Positions 5,996 through 64,000 of a stretch of 64,000 nucleotides of DNA are shown piece by piece. Origin of the DNA: an uncultured Bacilli bacterium. Lineage in GTDB: Bacteria > Bacillota_I > Bacilli_A > RF39 > UBA660. Below the pieces are notes generated by a model. It did no database searches, was not told where the DNA came from, and saw only the letters and a list, made by a program, of their open reading frames with translations. Within the stretch, counting starts at the first letter, position 1. The number at the start of each line of letters is the position of its first letter. The position numbers were made by a program, and so were the translations under genes. The stretch covers positions 1,490-65,489 of the forward strand of contig CANQMV010000002.1 in NCBI GenBank assembly GCA_947625085.1, in the 5' to 3' direction.

Positions 5996-6072
5996 TGAGA
6001 AATAACTCAGTTGGTTAGAGTGGGGAGCTTATATCTCTCTGGTCGTGGGTTCAAGTCCTACTTTCGCAACCA
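5996..6072 (+). tRNA. tRNA-Ile, anticodon UAU (reads AUA)
   Basis: Manual cloverleaf. Acceptor TGAGAAA/TTTCGCA with one A-G mismatch at 3-70. D arm ACTC..GAGT. Anticodon loop CTTATAT. T arm GTGGG-TTCAAGT-CCTAC. Encoded ACCA end. Confidence 0.7.
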
Positions 6073-6096
6073 TTTTAATGAAAGGAAAAGATAATT

Positions 6097-6231
6097 ATGC
6101 CATGTCATAGAAAAGACGGAAATGGTACACAAAAGAAAAAGTACCAAGCACATTTTTTAAAAATAAAAGATTATACATCAAAAGGAAAAACAAACAAAAA
6201 AAAGAAAAATCCAAAAGAAAAGCAAAAGTAG
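6097..6231 (+). CDS. 44-aa lysine-rich basic mini-protein between tRNAs
   Basis: SD AAAGGAAAAG before ATG 6097. MPCHRKDGNGTQKKKYQAHFLKIKDYTSKGKTNKKKKNPKEKQK. Confidence 0.3.
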   Translation: MPCHRKDGNGTQKKKYQAHFLKIKDYTSKGKTNKKKKNPKEKQK

Positions 6232-6252
6232 AGTTATTAATACTTTTTTTAT

Positions 6253-6327
6253 TGCCTCATAGCCAAATGGTAAGGCATAAGGCTTTGAACCTTAGATATG
6301 CTAGTCCGAGTCTAGCTGAGGCAACCA
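6253..6327 (+). tRNA. tRNA-Gln, anticodon UUG
   Basis: Perfect 7-bp acceptor TGCCTCA/TGAGGCA. D arm GCCAAATGGTAAGGC. Anticodon loop CTTTGAA. T arm GCTAG-TCCGAGT-CTAGC (C at position 55 is unusual). ACCA end. Confidence 0.8.
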
Positions 6328-6333
6328 ATTTAT

Positions 6334-6407
6334 CGCAGGTTAGTGTAATGGTAACATTTTAGAATCAGTATCTAAAGATAAAGGTTCAATTCCTTTGCCT
6401 GCAACCA
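6334..6407 (+). tRNA. Atypical tRNA, anticodon CAG (nominally Leu) on a class I body with a 4-nt variable loop
   Basis: Acceptor CGCAGGT/GCCTGCA with a C1-A72 mismatch and a G-U pair. D arm GTGT-AATGGTA-ACAT. Anticodon stem TTAGA/TCTAA with loop ATCAGTA. T arm AAAGG-TTCAATT-CCTTT. ACCA end. Confidence 0.55.
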
Positions 6408-6649: not shown

Positions 6650-7123
6650 ATGGCAAAAAGTAAAGTTGAGAAATGGTTAACTCCTGATGGCTTAACTTTA
6701 CTAGGTGGTTGGGCAAGAGAAGGACTAACCGATGAAGAAATTGCTAGAAAAATGAAAATATCCAGGTCAACTTTAAGTGAATATAAAAAAAAATATTCGG
6801 ACATATCGGACACCTTAAAAAAGGAAAAAGAAATAGTTGACTATGAGGTTGAGAATGCTTTATTAAAAAAGTGTTTAGGTTATAATGTGAAAGTTTTAAA
6901 AAATATAAAACTTAAGAAAGTAGAATACAATTCCAAAGGATATAAAAAATCAGAAAAAGAAGAAATAGTAGAAGTTTATGATGAAGTACATATTCCAGCA
7001 GATACTACAGCTCAAATTATTTGGTTAAAAAATAGACAACCAGATAAATGGCGGGATAAACCTCAACCTAAAAATAATGAAGATGAGGGAGTTGTGATAG
7101 TTGATGACCTCTCAAATTATTAA
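6650..7123 (+). CDS. terS: Terminase small subunit
   Basis: N-terminal HTH (..LTDEEIARKMKISRSTLSEYKKKY..) typical of phage TerS. Sits immediately upstream of TerL. Confidence 0.75.
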   Translation: MAKSKVEKWLTPDGLTLLGGWAREGLTDEEIARKMKISRSTLSEYKKKYSDISDTLKKEKEIVDYEVENALLKKCLGYNVKVLKNIKLKKVEYNSKGYKKSEKEEIVEVYDEVHIPADTTAQIIWLKNRQPDKWRDKPQPKNNEDEGVVIVDDLSNY

Positions 7124-8453
7124 TAAAAAAGTTGTTAATATAAGAGATTTAATTATTCCAAAATATCATAATAATTTTGGAGATATATCTCACACTCATC
7201 AAATATATACTAGTGGCAGAGCTGGAACTAAATCAAGTCGTGGAGCTTTAAAAGCGGTTAGAAGAATAATTGACAAAAAGCCTGGTTCAGTAGTTATTAT
7301 GAGAAAGTTTCATAATAAATTAAAAAAGACGGTATTTAAAGAGGCATTAAGAGCAATTTATAGATTGAAACTTAATAAAAAAGATTTTAAGATAACAATA
7401 AGTCCAATGCAAATAACTTATAATCCAACAGGAAATACAATTTACTTCACTGGTAATGATTCAATTGATGATACTAAAGGTATGATAGATGAGGATAGAC
7501 CAATTGTATTGGTTGAATTAGATGAGGTAACAGAGTTTTTTGATAAAGGTGATGGAGAAGATGAATTACAAAACATAGAAGCAACATTTATTCGTGGAAA
7601 TGATGAAGAGTTTGTTATGGAATATTATTTTAATCCACCTAAAAATCCTAAAGCTGATATAATGCTATGGCTTGATAAAATGAAATTGAGAGAAGATTGC
7701 ATACACGTTCATACTGACTATAGAGATGTGCCTGTTGAATGGTTAGGTAAAAAGTTGATAGCAACAGCTGAAATACTTAGAAATTTAGATGAAAAAATGT
7801 ATAACTGGTTATGGCTAGGATTATGTACAGGTATAGATGAAGTAATCTATTATATGTTTAAAGAAGATATTCATGTTAAAGAATTGCAAGAAGACGAATA
7901 TCATAAAATTAATTTTTTAGCAATTGGTGTTGATTATGGGCAAATGAATCCTACAACTTATGAATGCTTTGCTTTAAATGTGGCAGATAAATGTATAAAT
8001 GGAATAGATGAATATTATCATAGCGGTAGGGAAACCGGAAAACAAAAAAGTCCTAGTGAATATGCTAAAGATTTTAAAGAATTTAGAGAAAAGGTTGAGA
8101 GCCAAACTGGTAAGAAGGTGTTATATGTGTATATAGACCCATCAGCAAAAGGTTTACAAGAGGAAATAAAAAGATTATGTCCTGATATTATTTTTCCATC
8201 TGTTGATAATACAGTCGAGTTAGGTATAAATAGAGTTCAAAAGTTGATGTCTTATAGACGTCTTTTTTTAAGTTCTAAGCAAAAGCACTTGATAGAAGAA
8301 AGATATATGTATAAATACGATGAAGATTTGCTTGATAAAGGAAAAGAAGTTCCGGTAAAACAAAATGACCATTGTTCTGATGCAGAGAGATATACAATTA
8401 TGGGATTGTGGAGATTTTTGAAAAATATGTTACCAATTTTAGAAAGAGAGTGA
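7101..8453 (+). CDS. terL: Terminase large subunit
   Basis: 450 aa. Walker-A-like SGRAGTKSS near the N-terminus. Size and position match PBSX/SPP1-type TerL. Confidence 0.85.
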   Translation: MMTSQIINKKVVNIRDLIIPKYHNNFGDISHTHQIYTSGRAGTKSSRGALKAVRRIIDKKPGSVVIMRKFHNKLKKTVFKEALRAIYRLKLNKKDFKITISPMQITYNPTGNTIYFTGNDSIDDTKGMIDEDRPIVLVELDEVTEFFDKGDGEDELQNIEATFIRGNDEEFVMEYYFNPPKNPKADIMLWLDKMKLREDCIHVHTDYRDVPVEWLGKKLIATAEILRNLDEKMYNWLWLGLCTGIDEVIYYMFKEDIHVKELQEDEYHKINFLAIGVDYGQMNPTTYECFALNVADKCINGIDEYYHSGRETGKQKSPSEYAKDFKEFREKVESQTGKKVLYVYIDPSAKGLQEEIKRLCPDIIFPSVDNTVELGINRVQKLMSYRRLFLSSKQKHLIEERYMYKYDEDLLDKGKEVPVKQNDHCSDAERYTIMGLWRFLKNMLPILERE

Positions 8454-37362: not shown

Positions 37363-38097
37363 ATGAGAATTGCGGTATTTTCTGATATTCATGGTAATTT
37401 AGAAGCTTTAAAAGAAATTTTAAATGATATAGAAAATGAAAAAATTGATGAAGTTATTTGTTTAGGAGATGTTATAGGTCTTGGACCGGAAAGTAAAGAA
37501 TGCCTAGATTTAATAATTTCTAAAAAAATTAAATTTATTTTAGGTAATCATGAACTTTGTTATTTATTTGGTTTTAATATTGATAAAAGTGTTGATTTAA
37601 AAAGAAGTGAACATTATAAATATATTGATAAAATTTTAGGAGAAGAAGAACATAGATTTTTAGAGAAATGTCCGTTGTTTATTGAATGTAAATATTTAGA
37701 TAAAAAGATTTTGTTTGAGCATTTTTTAATTAAAGATAGAAATTTAAAATATCCTTATTATAGTTTAAATATTTTAACGAGTTTAAAAGATAGTTTAGGG
37801 GAAATTGTAAAAAAGACAGGAAATGATTATATTTTTATAGGTCATGAACATACAGGATTTGAATTTGAGGTTGATGATATTAAATTGATTGATATTGGTA
37901 GTAGTGGATGTGTTAAAAATAATATAATTTTTTATACCATTATTGAATTTAAAAATGATATTTCTGTTATGAAAAAGGTTATTACTTATAATAAAGGAAA
38001 ATTAGAAAAAGCATTGTTAAAAGAAGATTATCCTGAAAGATTAGAAATAGCTTCGAAATTTTTTGGAATAAATATTGAAAAAGAAAATTCAAATTGA
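37363..38097 (+). CDS. Metallophosphoesterase (YfcE/MPP family)
   Basis: MRIAVFSDIHGN..GD..G.GP..GNHE..GHEH motifs. Confidence 0.8.
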   Translation: MRIAVFSDIHGNLEALKEILNDIENEKIDEVICLGDVIGLGPESKECLDLIISKKIKFILGNHELCYLFGFNIDKSVDLKRSEHYKYIDKILGEEEHRFLEKCPLFIECKYLDKKILFEHFLIKDRNLKYPYYSLNILTSLKDSLGEIVKKTGNDYIFIGHEHTGFEFEVDDIKLIDIGSSGCVKNNIIFYTIIEFKNDISVMKKVITYNKGKLEKALLKEDYPERLEIASKFFGINIEKENSN

Positions 38098-38103
38098 TAT
38101 AAT
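38075..38103 (+). promoter_or_regulatory. Promoter of leader copy 1
   Basis: TTGAAA 38075-80, 17-nt spacer ending in TGa, then TATAAT 38098-103. Confidence 0.5.
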
Positions 38104-38134
38104 AAAATCATCTAATAAAATAGGATGTGATATT

Positions 38135-38203
38135 ATGTATAAAATAGATGTAAATTATGAAGAAAAAGAAGTTGACAATTTGTCAACCTGGGGGGGGGTA
38201 TAG
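38135..38203 (+). CDS. Leader uORF copy 1 (22 aa, MYKIDVNYEEKEVDNLSTWGGV) containing the palindrome and G9 tract
   Basis: SD AGGATG lies upstream. Inverted repeat GTTGACA-ATT-TGTCAAC at 38171-87. G9 at 38190-98. TAG at 38201-03. The C-terminus and nucleotide core are conserved in copies 2 and 3. Confidence 0.6.
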   Translation: MYKIDVNYEEKEVDNLSTWGGV

Positions 38204-38242
38204 TACTTAAATATCAACTAAATTCTCAAAAATTAAAAGAGT

Positions 38243-38293
38243 AACACTTAAAAAATTGGTAAGAAATTTACCAAATTTTTAGGTGTTTTTTTA
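38243..38293 (+). terminator. Leader terminator copy 1
   Basis: 20-bp stem AACACTTAAAAAATTGGTAA / TTACCAAATTTTTAGGTGTT (one G-U pair, one mismatch), loop GAAAT, then T7. Lies 25 nt before ATG 38318. Confidence 0.8.
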
Positions 38294-38317
38294 AGTTAAA
38301 AAAGAAAGAAGGATTTT

Positions 38318-45798: not shown

Positions 45799-45876
45799 AT
45801 GGAAAATAAGTTAAAATATTATAAAAATTATCAAAGAAAAGAAGTTGACAAATTGTCAACCATGGGGGGGGGATAG
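45799..45876 (+). CDS. Leader uORF copy 2 (25 aa, MENKLKYYKNYQRKEVDKLSTMGGG)
   Basis: SD AGGAG. Palindrome GTTGACA-AAT-TGTCAAC at 45844-60. G9 at 45864-72. TAG at 45874-76. Confidence 0.6.
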   Translation: MENKLKYYKNYQRKEVDKLSTMGGG

Positions 45877-45915
45877 TACTTAAATATCAAGTAAATCCTT
45901 TGAACTTAAAAGAAT

Positions 45916-45966
45916 AACACTTAAAAAATTGGTAAGAAATTTACCAAGTTTTTAGGTGTTTTTTTA
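45916..45966 (+). terminator. Leader terminator copy 2
   Basis: Near-identical to copy 1 (20-bp stem plus T7). Lies 23 nt before ATG 45989. Confidence 0.8.
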
Positions 45967-45988
45967 AGTTTATTTAGGAGGATGAAAG

Positions 45989-62012: not shown

Positions 62013-62606
62013 ATGTTCAAGTTAGCAAATGATTTATTATTCGTTATGGCAACTACTTGGCCAATTGTTACCATTACTGTCGTTGCAATTATTTCACTTA
62101 GAATTACTTATTTAATTAAATATAAAAGTAAATTTGTTTTATATGAAGAATTATTATTATTAATTTTTGTTGTTTATTTGTTAATGTTTTTCCAAGTTGT
62201 AACATATCAAGATGTAATTTCTTATGGTAATAATTTTATTCCTTTTAAAGAGGTAACTAGATATCAATTTGGTTCAAGTTTATTTTATAAAAATGTTATT
62301 GGAAATATATTACTTTTTATGCCATATGGTTTTTTTGCTTCTTATTATTTAAAATTAGATAAGAAAAGAATCACTTGTCTTTTGATTTTGATTGTATCTT
62401 TATCAATAGAATGCGTTCAACTTTTAATTGGAAGATGTTTTGATGTTGATGATATTTTATTAAATTTAATTGGGGGAATGCTTGGTTATTTTGTTTATTG
62501 GTTACTTGATATAATAACTGATAAAATGTCAAAGCGAACAATTAGTACGTTGTTAATAACAGCAATTATTATTTTAATTATTGCACTTTTATATATAATG
62601 ATGTGA
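62013..62606 (+). CDS. VanZ-family membrane protein
   Basis: Four TM helices; ..N..LF.P.GF......D..LN..GG..GY pattern. Confidence 0.7.
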   Translation: MFKLANDLLFVMATTWPIVTITVVAIISLRITYLIKYKSKFVLYEELLLLIFVVYLLMFFQVVTYQDVISYGNNFIPFKEVTRYQFGSSLFYKNVIGNILLFMPYGFFASYYLKLDKKRITCLLILIVSLSIECVQLLIGRCFDVDDILLNLIGGMLGYFVYWLLDIITDKMSKRTISTLLITAIIILIIALLYIMM

Positions 62607-62614
62607 GGTATAAC

Positions 62615-63058
62615 ATGAAAATTGGAATATTTAATGAAACAAATGAAGATATAAAAAAGGAATTAAAGATTGTTTTAAAAGTTTTAAAAAGAGGATTAAA
62701 ATATTTAAAAATAACTAAGGTTGAATTTAATGTTATTATTGTAGATAATAATTATATTCATGAACTTAATAAAACTTATCGAGGGGTTGATAGGGAAACG
62801 GATGTTATAAGTTTTGCTTTGGAAGATGATAAAACTTTTAATCCTGAAAATCGGGTTTTAGGAGATATTTATATTTCAATTGATAAAGTATATAGTCAAG
62901 CTTTGGAATATGGACATTCTAATTTACGGGAACTTGCTTTTTTAGCAGTTCATGGAATGTTACATTTACTTGGTTATGACCATATGAAAAAAGAAGATGA
63001 GGAAGTTATGTTTAAACTTCAAGAAGAAATTTTAAATCAAAGTAAGATTACAAGGTAA
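62615..63058 (+). CDS. ybeY: rRNA maturation endoribonuclease YbeY
   Basis: HGMLHLLGYDH zinc motif. ATG 62615 follows GAGGT. Confidence 0.9.
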   Translation: MKIGIFNETNEDIKKELKIVLKVLKRGLKYLKITKVEFNVIIVDNNYIHELNKTYRGVDRETDVISFALEDDKTFNPENRVLGDIYISIDKVYSQALEYGHSNLRELAFLAVHGMLHLLGYDHMKKEDEEVMFKLQEEILNQSKITR

Positions 63059-63078: not shown

Positions 63079-63107
63079 TTGCTATTCTAACTTTCTTGTG
63101 ATATTAT
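63079..63107 (+). promoter_or_regulatory. Promoter of leader copy 3
   Basis: TTGCTA 63079-84, 17-nt spacer ending in TGa, then TATTAT 63102-07. Confidence 0.45.
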
Positions 63108-63133
63108 TTTTATAGAAAATAGAAGGTGATTTC

Positions 63134-63199
63134 ATGGTTAAAATAGAAAAATTAAGTCAAAAAGAAGTTGACAAATTGTCAACCTGGGGGGGGGTATAG
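63134..63199 (+). CDS. Leader uORF copy 3 (21 aa, MVKIEKLSQKEVDKLSTWGGV)
   Basis: SD GAAGGTGA. Palindrome GTTGACA-AAT-TGTCAAC at 63167-83. G9 at 63186-94. TAG at 63197-99. Confidence 0.6.
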   Translation: MVKIEKLSQKEVDKLSTWGGV

Positions 63200-63245
63200 T
63201 ACTTAATTTAAAGGGTAACTGTATTTTAAAAATAGACAAAATAAG

Positions 63246-63289
63246 ACACATAAAACTAGTAGAATAAGACTAGGTTTTATGTGTTTTTA
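63246..63289 (+). terminator. Leader terminator copy 3 (different sequence, same position)
   Basis: ACACATAAAACTAGT / ACTAGGTTTTATGTGT stem (1-nt bulge), loop AGAATAAG, then T5. Confidence 0.7.
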
Positions 63290-63359
63290 AATGCATAAAT
63301 ATTGCTAAACAGGGGCAAACGTGTTATTATAAAAATATAAAAAATAGGAGAGGTAGAAA

Positions 63360-64000
63360 ATGAAAAATAAGAAAAGAAATATTATATTAATGTGTATCTT
63401 GATAGTCTTAGTTTTACTTGTTAGTATAGGAATAACCTATGCATTTTATTCATATTCCAAAACAGGAAGTAGTAATAGTCAGTTAGTAGCCGGAGATATT
63501 TATATGCATTATAAAGAAGGTGATGCTATAAATATGCCAAATGCAATGCCAAGTGCAACATATGATGAAAGTAAAGTATTTGAATTTACAATTGATGGCA
63601 AGAATACATATACAGAAAAGGATATATGGTATGAAATAATATTAACACGTGGCGAAGTACCAGAAGGAAAGACGGAAGAAAACCGAATAAAAGATAAAGA
63701 TTTAAAGTTTACGTTAATAGAAACGAAAACTGGAGAAGACCCTAAAACAGTATTAGATGGAGTAAGTTATGACAATTTAATAAATAAAAGAATTTGGGTA
63801 AATACAATTCCAAAGAATACAAACGATAAAATAGAAATAACCTATAAATTATACATGTGGATAAGTGATGAAACGGTAATTGGAGAAATAGAAGGAGAAA
63901 GTGATACAGTTGACTATTCAATTAGTGAATGGAATGATATTTTTGCAAGTATCAAAGTAAATGTAAAAGGAGACTTTGAAGAAAAAGAGATTAAAAGTGA
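63360..64000 (+). CDS. Secreted/anchored protein (paralog C), 5' part; continues beyond the window
   Basis: SD AGGAGAGG. MKNKKRNIILMCILIVLVLLVSIGITYAFYSYSKTGSSNSQLVAGD.. resembles a SipW/camelysin-type signal. The following domain parallels the paralog A N-terminal domain. Open to the window end and not in the ORF track. Confidence 0.7.
   Translation, partial: MKNKKRNIILMCILIVLVLLVSIGITYAFYSYSKTGSSNSQLVAGDIYMHYKEGDAINMPNAMPSATYDESKVFEFTIDGKNTYTEKDIWYEIILTRGEVPEGKTEENRIKDKDLKFTLIETKTGEDPKTVLDGVSYDNLINKRIWVNTIPKNTNDKIEITYKLYMWISDETVIGEIEGESDTVDYSISEWNDIFASIKVNVKGDFEEKEIKS

Follow-up and report, generated by a model that had tools for sequence, protein, structure and literature searches.

A candidate poly-G leader-peptide switch ahead of three predicted exported-protein genes in an uncultured-type gut Firmicute

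Three leaders of common architecture are placed in the same orientation, on the + strand, directly ahead of genes for predicted exported proteins in the window (the whole stretch of DNA analysed, 64 kb, 25.9% GC). Each carries a Shine-Dalgarno sequence, a short upstream ORF (uORF) with a run of nine G residues (G9) and a predicted intrinsic terminator. In Streptococcus gallolyticus pil1 and pil3, it has been proven experimentally that when the repeat in a leader peptide changes length, ribosomes can keep a premature terminator from acting (Danne et al., 2014; PMC3894217), and the system could be transferred to Lactococcus. By analogy, we consider it somewhat better than an even chance that the leaders described here are a poly-G variant of this leader-peptide/terminator switch. 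The elements of copy 3 are as follows.

63079–63107, + strand: promoter-like TTGCTA-17-TATTAT with TG (extended -10), a consensus match only
63121–63130, + strand: Shine-Dalgarno AGAAGGTGAT, 3 nt 5´ of the uORF ATG
63134–63199, + strand: leader ORF (uORF) as assembled with G9, MVKIEKLSQKEVDKLSTWGGV and stop, 21 codons
63160–63206, + strand: copy of the 47-nt core common to the three copies, AAAAGAAG-GTTGACAAwTTGTCAAC-CC(T or AT)-G9-(T)ATAGTACTTAA
63197–63199 and 63204–63206: stop codons within the core, TAG of the G9 frame and TAA of the G8 frame
63167–63183, + strand: 17-nt palindrome GTTGACAAATTGTCAAC, a predicted RNA hairpin (dG -7) ending 2 nt before the G run
63186–63194, + strand: G9 homopolymer, the proposed slippage-prone switch
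63195–63267, + strand: extension ending in GGGIVLNLKGNCILKIDKIRHIKLVE and stop, read only at G10 (or G7, G13)
63265–63267: stop TAA of the G10 frame, within the terminator loop
63243–63288, + strand: intrinsic-terminator-like hairpin of ~17 pairs ending in U5 (dG -17.7 kcal/mol, z = -6.2 against shuffles)
63302–63330, + strand: second promoter-like site, in copy 3 only, TTGCTA-17-TATTAT with TG, between terminator and gene
63345–64000, + strand: downstream gene with Shine-Dalgarno AGGAGAGG (63345–63352) and ATG at 63360, cut by the window end

The corresponding elements of copies 1 and 2 are:

38075–38317, + strand: copy 1 leader
38075–38103: copy 1 promoter-like TTGAAA-17-TATAAT with TG, 11/12 consensus positions
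38135–38203: copy 1 uORF
38171–38187 and 38190–38198: copy 1 palindrome and G9
38242–38244: copy 1 G10-frame stop TAA, overlapping the hairpin base
38243–38292: copy 1 predicted terminator, U-tract 38286–38292
38318: ATG of the putatively controlled copy 1 gene (995-aa protein with three LamG domains), 25–27 nt after the terminator
45799–45988, + strand: copy 2 leader
45799–45876 and 45844–45860: copy 2 uORF and palindrome
45864–45872: copy 2 G9, displaced by 1 nt relative to the flanks, with run length and frame both kept
45915–45917: copy 2 G10-frame stop TAA, at the hairpin base
45916–45965: copy 2 predicted terminator, U-tract 45959–45965
45989: ATG of the putatively controlled copy 2 gene (484-aa protein)

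The first-pass annotation had reported the upstream promoter-like element, the uORF and the G9 run of copy 3, and had the G10 frame running into the terminator; all four are found in the DNA, the uORF with its Shine-Dalgarno sequence. Matches like the promoter-like element are not enriched over shuffles, four having been found against 3.7 expected. From its predicted transcription start, the copy 3 5´ UTR would be ~20 nt long and contain the Shine-Dalgarno sequence.

Besides copy 3, the 47-nt core is found at 38164–38210 and 45837–45883, and a 30-nt core occurs three times with at most two mismatches, against 0 expected. Apart from the three G9 runs, the window has no G run of 7 nt or more (three of at least 8 nt against 0.07 expected), the next longest being 6 nt. 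A related module, here called L005, lies on a contig of another assembly. Across the three copies and L005 the uORF is 21–25 codons long and keeps a strong Shine-Dalgarno sequence and an ATG, despite diverged N-terminal uORF sequence. The palindrome within the core is perfect (8-1-8) and is predicted to form, as RNA, a 7-bp hairpin with a 3-nt loop (dG -7 to -8.5) that ends 2–3 nt before the G run. Its arms are invariant in all four sequences, even at synonymous sites, while the centre varies. Such a hairpin may either pause RNA polymerase until the ribosome catches up or promote slippage. A tract-length switch does not require a hairpin at this distance, and the invariant palindrome, together with the invariant ATAGTACTTAA, goes beyond the needs of a terminator switch.

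The frames downstream of the G run differ in where they end. In all three copies the G9 and G8 stops both fall within the invariant core, 42–46 nt and 35–39 nt 5´ of the hairpin, respectively (the copy 3 TAG of the G9 frame lies 46 nt upstream of the hairpin base). In each of the two leader lineages, copies 1 and 2 on the one hand and copy 3 and L005 on the other, the third frame runs without a stop as far as the hairpin; counted from the hairpin base, its G10 stop lies at -1 in the former and at +22 in the latter. When a pil1/pil3-type layout is defined by a short-frame stop at least 28 nt before the hairpin and a shifted-frame stop at, within or beyond it, the three copies and L005 all have this layout. 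By chance, the third frame would be open with a probability of ~0.33 in the lineage of copies 1 and 2, of ~0.22 in that of copy 3 and L005, and of ~0.07 in both together, and chance alone could have produced it. The extensions of copies 1 and 2 differ by four amino-acid changes in nine codons and the frame is still open, which suggests that the frame rather than the peptide sequence is constrained.

The predicted terminator hairpins of the three copies have dG values of -17.7 to -18.6 and z values of -4.4 to -6.2, and are followed by U5 to U7. Copies 1 and 2 are near-identical from the core through the terminator, while copy 3 has only the core and the architecture in common with them. The copy 3 terminator had been described as completely different in sequence, which does not hold: its global alignment to the copy 1 terminator scores z = 4.1 above shuffles, and it is the most copy-1-like of the nine terminator-like hairpins in the window. 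The two have in common the base of the stem (ACAC/GUGU) and its A-rich/U-rich middle, and the stem top differs in sequence with complementarity kept (3 of 8 consensus pairs compensatory). Because of this significant alignment, the common stem base and middle, and the compensatory pairs, the copy 3 terminator is probably a diverged homolog rather than a replacement. The argument that structure conserved without sequence is the best internal evidence for function is therefore weaker than proposed, since the structure is indeed kept but the sequences are also significantly alike. The terminator does occupy an equivalent position with respect to the G run (44–50 nt in all copies), but not with respect to the gene, which starts 71 nt downstream in copy 3 versus 25–27 nt in the other two.

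This spacing bears on how the genes could be transcribed. In copies 1 and 2, the interval between terminator and ATG contains no promoter-like site on the + strand, and the large gene would have to be read through the predicted terminator because there is no room for a promoter of its own. In copy 3, the extra space holds the second promoter-like site, the 5´ part of which is conserved in L005, and the gene may have its own promoter there; if active, this site would give terminator-independent expression. The three putatively controlled proteins are not paralogs of each other, so that the leader constitutes a module rather than something carried along when a gene was duplicated, and co-duplication of leader and gene is ruled out on the same ground. 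The N-terminus of the copy 3 product has a basic stretch followed by a hydrophobic segment (signal or anchor), and a Pfam search with this product gave no match. Distant homologs of the copy 2 gene (L003 and L004) are found without such a leader. For the prophage terminase, the best match was to an Acutalibacter phage, at 55%.

Extended-frame peptides have been called as genes in three further assemblies (P0121–P0123), P0122 and P0123 being of the copy 3 type. They are the only three relatives found among 5.8 billion proteins, and a 1.84-billion-protein library yielded none further; relatives of this kind are a biased sample because gene callers ignore ORFs of 21–25 codons. L005 retains the terminator hairpin, the Shine-Dalgarno sequence and the ATG in a different gene context and reads G10, a call that is uncertain because coverage is 1.8x. 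Between assemblies, tract length or frame differs: G9 here, G10 in L005 (at that coverage), and in P0121 and P0123 the extended frame. A profile search gave no longer protein containing the peptide except P0180, a 173-aa tandem-repeat protein of HEVDQVSTWGGSSV units, which we rejected as an unrelated look-alike; a pseudogene fragment of a larger protein was discarded accordingly. Searches with the core pattern gave no match in viral contigs, none relevant in JGI metagenomes (one unrelated TTGACA-17-TATAGT site, L006), and only two unrelated Terribacillus sites without poly-G in GTDB genomes, where the pattern fixed the palindrome centre so tightly that L005-type cores would escape. Scanning the whole window with Rfam at gathering score detected only three tRNAs and no cis-regulatory family, and E-value scans of copies 1 and 3 returned only sub-threshold hairpin noise, so a known RNA family was rejected for the leader at gathering score.

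In the light of these observations, the first-pass proposal can be upheld in part. Its central idea, that the frame entered when the G run changes by one base is intended to reach the terminator, agrees with all that was computed. It is favoured by the closure of the other two frames, the open third frame, the extended-frame relatives and the pil1/pil3 precedent, and it is tempered by the joint chance probability given above and by the possible copy 3 promoter.

In the switch that we favour, each leader would act in cis to tie expression of the downstream surface-protein gene to the length of the G homopolymer. Transcription would begin at a promoter just 5´ of the leader, and the Shine-Dalgarno sequence and ATG would load ribosomes on the short ORF around the G run. 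At the assembled length of G9, or at G8, the translating ribosome would stop in the conserved core, 35–46 nt before the terminator, the hairpin would form, most transcripts would end there and the gene would be low or off. With G10, a one-base gain (equivalently G7 or G13), ribosomes would read on, in copies 1 and 2 as far as the hairpin base and in copy 3 into the hairpin itself; stopped there, they would occlude its 5´ arm, block the terminator and allow transcription into the gene (on). The length change would most likely arise by slipped-strand mispairing at replication, giving heritable, reversible phase variation. Translation of the uORF, termination at the hairpin, ribosomes that follow RNA polymerase closely enough and switching of the tract within a population are all inferred in this scheme. 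In Bacillus subtilis, transcription is not tightly coupled to translation, which counts against the switch; ribosome-mediated antitermination in Firmicutes would therefore need an extra pause. All three loci are G9 in this assembly, and independent stochastic switches need not agree; selection for the off state could be the source of this uniformity.

Other readings place the function of the leader elsewhere. It is unlikely, in our judgement, that each leader is a stand-alone small gene for a 36–45-aa peptide with its own promoter, Shine-Dalgarno sequence and terminator, either phase-variable or mis-assembled as G9, perhaps secreted as a double-glycine-type peptide and placed before surface-protein genes with no regulatory role. 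The G10-frame stop abuts or overlaps the terminator as in ordinary gene ends, gene calls for the extended peptides exist in other assemblies, the large gene of copy 3 may have a promoter to itself, and the segment LSxKEVDKLSTWGG is reminiscent of double-glycine leaders. However, no bacteriocin, ComC or double-glycine-leader model of Pfam or NCBIfam is matched even at E <= 10, and the flanking genes are housekeeping genes, the ORFs scanned there including neither a C39 peptidase nor an ABC transporter and hence no C39-peptidase ABC exporter; membership of a double-glycine peptide family was rejected on these grounds. The part after GG is also poorly conserved between copies 1 and 2, the peptide has very few relatives, and the large genes of copies 1 and 2 would have to be read through the terminator. 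Quite unlikely is a change of frame at the RNA level, in which the hairpin 5´ of G9, a run that matches the RNA:DNA hybrid in length, would cause slippage of RNA polymerase. Every cell would then hold a fixed mix of G8, G9 and G10 transcripts, a set fraction of which reads through by the same ribosome/terminator logic, and the device would be a non-genetic, possibly GTP-sensitive rheostat rather than a heritable switch. The 7-bp hairpin 2–3 nt before the run in 4/4 sequences, with invariant arms and a variable loop, agrees with slippage, a hairpin 5´ of a homopolymer being the defining context in Roseiflexus IS630 as summarised in PMC5009743, and slippage would account for exactly G9 at all three loci. 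But the event in that summary is a one-base deletion, which would here lead from G9 to the closed G8 frame; the tract length differs in the DNA between assemblies; and the hairpin is conserved only, without covariation as proof. The more specific proposal, that hairpin and G9 form a programmed transcriptional-slippage site at which ribosomes turn an RNA-level frame choice into antitermination, is likewise quite unlikely.

We regard it as very unlikely that the palindrome GTTGACAAnnTGTCAAC is the operator of a dimeric regulator, or that the core is a promoter (TTGACA ... TATAGT) with the G run as spacer, the uORF being incidental. The palindrome is perfect with invariant arms, the core does contain a consensus TTGACA and a near-consensus TATAGT, and in unrelated genomes (L006) TTGACA-17-TATAGT with a similar palindrome is an apparent promoter. 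Here, however, a spacer of 21 nt (G9) or 22 nt (G10) is too long to work, and 3–5 G would have to be lost; promoter-spacer homopolymer phase variation was ruled out by this spacing (TTGACA-21-TATAGT at G9 versus ~17 nt). In addition, the first base of the '-10' is not conserved (T, G, C), every copy keeps a Shine-Dalgarno sequence, ATG and open frame that an operator or promoter does not need, and a transcript from the core would still reach the terminator. Least probable, and to be doubted strongly, is a functionless repeated intergenic sequence with G9 as a homopolymer sequencing error, for which the near-identity of copies 1 and 2 from core through terminator and the error-prone nature of homopolymers can be cited. 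Although the window has 115 A or T runs of at least 7 nt, its long ORFs are unbroken, which argues that homopolymer error is not general. The three copies also have the same orientation and position before predicted exported-protein genes, copy 3 retains only core and architecture, and a related module stands in a different gene context in another assembly. The window gives no support for targeting of the G run by an sRNA, as it offers no C-rich partner and its longest C run, of 5, lies inside an ORF.

The leader-peptide switch is best compared with pil1 and pil3 of S. gallolyticus. In pil1 'low' cells, the short leader stops 39 bp before the terminator, whereas 'high' variants stop immediately upstream of, within or beyond the hairpin, and one isolate has a different stem-loop at the same place (PMC3894217). 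The leaders described here likewise combine a promoter, a translated leader ORF with a simple-sequence repeat, an intrinsic terminator and a surface-structure gene, all predicted; the short-frame stop lies 42–46 nt before the hairpin, the frame-shifted long peptide ends immediately before, within or beyond it, and the same device occurs at several loci of one genome, with one natural variant carrying another stem-loop. They differ in having a mononucleotide G9 instead of 13–22 copies of GCAGA, in that one in three lengths is predicted to be 'on' where both out-of-frame classes lengthen the pil peptide, and in a conserved hairpin just 5´ of the repeat. They precede single, mutually unrelated putative exported proteins rather than sortase-pilus operons, and their host is a 26% GC spore-former. 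The core sequence is another one, with neither GCAGA repeats nor sequence similarity to the pil1 leader, and the resemblance, on sequence comparison, is one of mechanism, not ancestry.

Homopolymer phase variation in coding regions or promoter spacers is a feature of Neisseria, Campylobacter and Haemophilus, and of the poly-A tracts of Mycoplasma hyorhinis vlp. G/C or A/T runs of ~8–11 nt beside surface-protein genes, slipped-strand mispairing and stochastic on/off expression would be common to those systems and to the leaders, but here the run lies in a separate upstream ORF and would act through a terminator, not in the structural gene or in a workable spacer (21 nt). Poly-G in a 5´ leader also governs downstream expression in Bacillus subtilis pyrG, by reiterative-G antitermination in which the poly-G 5´ end of the transcript pairs with the pyrimidine-rich 5´ terminator arm, and in Helicobacter pylori, where RepG targets the tlpB G repeat, whose length varies between strains. 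The present run lies ~75 nt into the predicted transcript and not at its start as in pyrG, pyrG-type pairing of poly-G with the terminator was rejected after cofolding showed no pairing of the run with either terminator arm, and a C-rich partner of the RepG type is absent from the window. In ribosome-mediated attenuation (E. coli pyrBI; trp and his leaders) a translating ribosome prevents formation of the terminator hairpin (discussed in PMC3894217); the favoured switch would likewise depend on a ribosome that blocks a terminator, and its leader hairpin could be a synchronising pause, but the input would be the reading frame set by the tract and not a metabolite-dependent speed of ribosome or polymerase. 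No alternative antiterminator pairing was found in the leaders. In Roseiflexus IS630, a one-base deletion at U5C5 yields full-length transposase (Penno et al., 2015, summarised in PMC5009743). In that summarised account the nascent RNA hairpin lies directly 5´ of a homopolymer of about RNA:DNA hybrid length, as in 4/4 sequences here, whereas the leaders have G9, an AU-rich hairpin (dG -7) and an insertion as the useful change.

In the literature searched, the leader-peptide phase-variation/attenuation switch is described only for pil1 and pil3 of one Streptococcus species, and a second, independently evolved version would show the generality of the principle. If the favoured reading is true, this version is homopolymer-based and comes as a portable module on three unrelated exported-protein genes of an uncultured-type gut Firmicute. 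If instead the programmed slippage described above holds, physiology, for example the GTP supply, would set how often a polymerase that the nascent hairpin has paused on a pure rG:dC hybrid adds or drops a G, and the outcome would be a non-genetic, tunable stochastic switch for a small surface-protein regulon, with G9/G10 variation in the DNA as a second, slower layer. Through the conserved hairpin beside the G run, it can be tested whether pausing or slippage of RNA polymerase is linked to ribosome-mediated antitermination in Firmicutes. A Shine-Dalgarno sequence and a uORF with a homopolymer, closed in two frames and open in the third into a terminator, would be a signature that genome scans can use, and the leaders would mark probable variable surface antigens of a little-known gut lineage.

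The copy 3 leader contains every element named in the first-pass annotation, namely a promoter-like site, a Shine-Dalgarno site with its uORF, a G9 run and a hairpin followed by U5. A second promoter-like site lies in the gap between this hairpin and the gene.

63079-63107, + strand: promoter-like sequence match TTGCTA-17-TATTAT, TG upstream
63121-63130, + strand: strong Shine-Dalgarno site AGAAGGTGAT, ATG 3 nt downstream
63134-63199, + strand: uORF of 21 codons, MVKIEKLSQKEVDKLSTWGGV and stop
63186-63194, + strand: G9 run
63243-63288, + strand: long terminator-like hairpin with U5 at its end (dG -17.7 kcal/mol; z = -6.2 against dinucleotide shuffles)
63302-63330: second promoter-like TTGCTA-17-TATTAT/TG, matching 63079-63107 in both hexamers and the TG

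The window has a GC content of 25.9%. G runs reach a length of 7 or more at three places only, each time as G9 (38190, 45864 and 63186; next longest run, 6). Runs of at least 8 thus number 3 against 0.07 expected, and among the glycine codons GGG is used least (8.6%). All three runs lie in a common 47-nt core, AAAAGAAG-GTTGACAAwTTGTCAAC-CC(T/AT)-G9-(T)ATAGTACTTAA. All three copies share one layout: a Shine-Dalgarno site and start codon for the uORF, whose N-terminal part is poorly conserved, then the core, 44–49 nt of variable sequence, the terminator-like hairpin, and the Shine-Dalgarno site and ATG of the large gene itself. The run of copy 2 sits one base out of register with its flanking sequence (CCATG9A, compared with CCTG9TA), yet both the nine Gs and the reading frame are preserved.

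The G-run length was edited in silico and the three copies were translated. The G9 frame ends at a TAG 42–46 nt before the hairpin base, and the G8 frame ends at the TAA of a conserved ACTTAA, 35–39 nt before the hairpin. Both stops are within the core; the invariant ATAGTACTTAA therefore shuts two frames, while the third can run on to the terminator. In copies 1 and 2 the G10 frame remains open until a TAA overlapping the start of the hairpin. In copy 3 it does reach the terminator, as previously proposed, and its TAA stop lies within the hairpin loop (+22). When the variable segment from core to hairpin was shuffled, the extended frame stayed open by chance with a probability of ~0.33 for the copy 1/2 lineage, ~0.22 for the lineage of copy 3 and the metagenomic contig L005, and ~0.07 jointly, which is suggestive support for the frame argument and not decisive. 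The extensions of copies 1 and 2 differ by 4 amino-acid changes in 9 codons with no stop gained, which fits a constraint on the frame rather than on the peptide sequence.

The copy 3 terminator had been described as non-homologous to the others. This is overstated, as the copy-1/copy-3 alignment scores z = 4.1 over shuffles and copy 3 is the most copy-1-like among the nine terminator-like hairpins found in the window. The two share the tail, an ACAC/GUGU stem base and an A-rich and U-rich middle; at the top the stems are unlike but still complementary (UUGGUAA/UUACCAA versus CUAG/CUAG), and 3 of the 8 consensus pairs are compensatory. The predicted copy 3 terminator thus appears to have diverged with compensation instead of being replaced, which is modest evidence for the hairpin. 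Its "equivalent position" holds relative to the G run, but not relative to the gene. In copies 1 and 2 the terminator-to-gene gap is 25–27 nt, holding just a Shine-Dalgarno site and no promoter-like match, whereas in copy 3 it is 71 nt and holds the putative promoter at 63302-63330, so the copy 3 gene may be expressed independently of the terminator. The 5' part of this promoter-like site is conserved in L005.

The mechanism proposed in the first-pass annotation, without its argument from a non-homologous terminator, is the best-supported reading and has a published counterpart. In the experimentally dissected pil1 and pil3 switch of S. gallolyticus, a leader-peptide gene with GCAGA repeats and a premature terminator lie upstream (PMC3894217). 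In low-expressing cells translation of the leader peptide ends 39 bp short of the hairpin. Changes in the repeats that shift the frame lengthen the peptide, whose stop then falls immediately before, within or after the hairpin; the ribosome blocks terminator formation and pilus transcription goes up. One isolate carries another stem-loop at the same position (PMC3894217). The distances here fit this design (short frame, -42 to -46 nt; long frame, -1 or +22), while the homopolymer repeat and an added hairpin set these leaders apart. G9, assembled at all three loci, would be the low state and G10, G7 or G13 the high state, with switching by slipped-strand mispairing. For the scheme to work, the uORF would have to be translated, the hairpin would have to terminate transcription, ribosome and polymerase would have to be closely coupled, and the tract would have to be unstable within a population. 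We consider the odds slightly in favor of a leader-peptide/terminator switch driven by G-run length.

This switch mechanism leaves the conserved palindrome of the core unaccounted for. The 17-nt palindrome folds as a 7-bp RNA hairpin (dG -7) that ends 2–3 nt before the G run. Its arms are invariant even at synonymous positions and its centre varies even at non-synonymous positions, which points to constraint on the nucleic acid. A pause hairpin in such a place would keep the polymerase waiting for the ribosome, as in the trp and his leaders. A hairpin 5' of a slippage run is also the context of stem-loop-stimulated RNA polymerase slippage in the Roseiflexus IS630 element (PMC5009743); the hairpin lies just before the run in both cases, and the run here is as long as the RNA:DNA hybrid. 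Either role, slippage stimulator or polymerase pause, would help the switch. On the minus strand, the palindrome and the complement of AAAAGAAG (CTTCTTTT) are terminator-like in all three copies (38169-38189, 45843-45861 and 63165-63185), with no minus-strand gene converging on them. Palindromes of the form GTTGACAAnnTGTCAAC without poly-G occur in unrelated genomes, a Terribacillus contig (L001, 2840-2866) and a JGI metagenome contig (L006, 6854-6885). In L006 the palindrome belongs to a perfect TTGACA-17-TATAGT promoter-like site, an illustration of how closely the core sequence resembles a promoter.

It is possible that the extended frame is a stand-alone small peptide gene, as ordinary genes also end with a stop codon next to a terminator; however, the peptide has no family match, conservation of its extension is poor, and read-through would be needed in copies 1 and 2. 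General homopolymer mis-assembly is unlikely: the window has 115 A or T runs of at least 7, and its long ORFs are nevertheless intact. A promoter-spacer switch fails at a spacing of 21–22 nt, the poly-G/terminator pairing of a pyrG-like mechanism is absent, and no Rfam family matched.

When 5.8 billion proteins were searched with a profile built from the three G10-frame peptides, three gene calls matched, each of them in the extended frame: P0121 (36 aa, copy 2-like), P0122 (45 aa, copy 3-like) and P0123 (58 aa, copy 3-like). Only extended-frame relatives can be found in this way, because gene callers ignore ORFs of 21–25 codons. Among 1.84 billion representatives, searched exhaustively, the one further match was P0180, an unrelated 173-aa repeat protein made up of five tandem units (...HEVDQVSTWGGSSV...); its similarity to the leader-peptide core (E = 1e-7) looks like chance. 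L005, an ENA metagenome contig, is 90% identical to 63134-63322, and its core reads GTTGACAATATGTCAAC-TT-G10-C-ATAGTACTTAA, with the G10 run read at 1.8x contig coverage. Its palindrome arms are preserved with an altered centre, and its extended-frame stop is a TGA in the hairpin loop. As assembled, these relatives show that related genomes differ in tract length or frame. The L005 leader follows a gene for a 269-aa protein with no Pfam match and not ybeY (L005 142-951 versus window 62603-63058), and similarity begins exactly at the uORF ATG; the copy-3-type leader, presumably with its gene, thus occupies different contexts in related genomes. Two gut-metagenome contigs, L007 and L008, carry homologues of the copy 3 gene at ~60% identity, directly preceded by a Shine-Dalgarno-led uORF of 23–27 codons and a terminator-like hairpin (L007, 2790-2990; L008, 2342-2480); the L008 uORF stops just 17 nt before its hairpin. 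Both leaders lack poly-G, so the uORF-plus-terminator leader may be older than the G run, with a different input in that gene family.

The three leader-plus-gene units are inserted singly among housekeeping genes.

Unit 1 (copy 1): between metallophosphoesterase and pyrimidine-nucleoside phosphorylase genes; protein of 995 aa with three LamG domains
Unit 2 (copy 2): between topA and rlmN; protein of 484 aa, no Pfam match
Unit 3 (copy 3): between ybeY and the window end; protein truncated at the window end, no Pfam match

At the N-terminus of all three proteins, a hydrophobic segment comes after a basic stretch. They are not paralogous to one another, the sole similarity being a 25-residue motif in the copy-1 and copy-2 proteins; the leader is therefore a module attached to different genes and not copied together with its gene. 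The host is a low-GC spore-former, with YqfC/YqfD present nearby, and its relatives are found in human gut metagenomes. Elsewhere in the window, a cluster of three tRNA genes (5996-6404) is followed by an apparent prophage (~6650-27000), whose large terminase (7101-8453) is 55% identical to that of Acutalibacter phage Fontainebleau and lies upstream of portal and tail-length ORFs.

The copy-2 protein family is very large (~8000 matches at 55–60% identity), and a leader of this type is absent before the two members read, on contigs L003 and L004. In L004 (4001-7966) the homologue (59% identity), with S26 signal peptidase and DUF5305 genes upstream, is followed by a diversity-generating retroelement (bAvd and reverse transcriptase). 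The C-terminus of the copy-2 protein (…WFDRGGGHTDG…ATRLVV) resembles a C-type-lectin/FGE-type variable region. The family may undergo retroelement-driven diversification in some genomes and phase variation here. For this mechanism the S. gallolyticus system was the only one found in the literature searched, and by analogy the G-run leaders would be a convergent, homopolymer version of that switch, serving three unrelated exported-protein genes.
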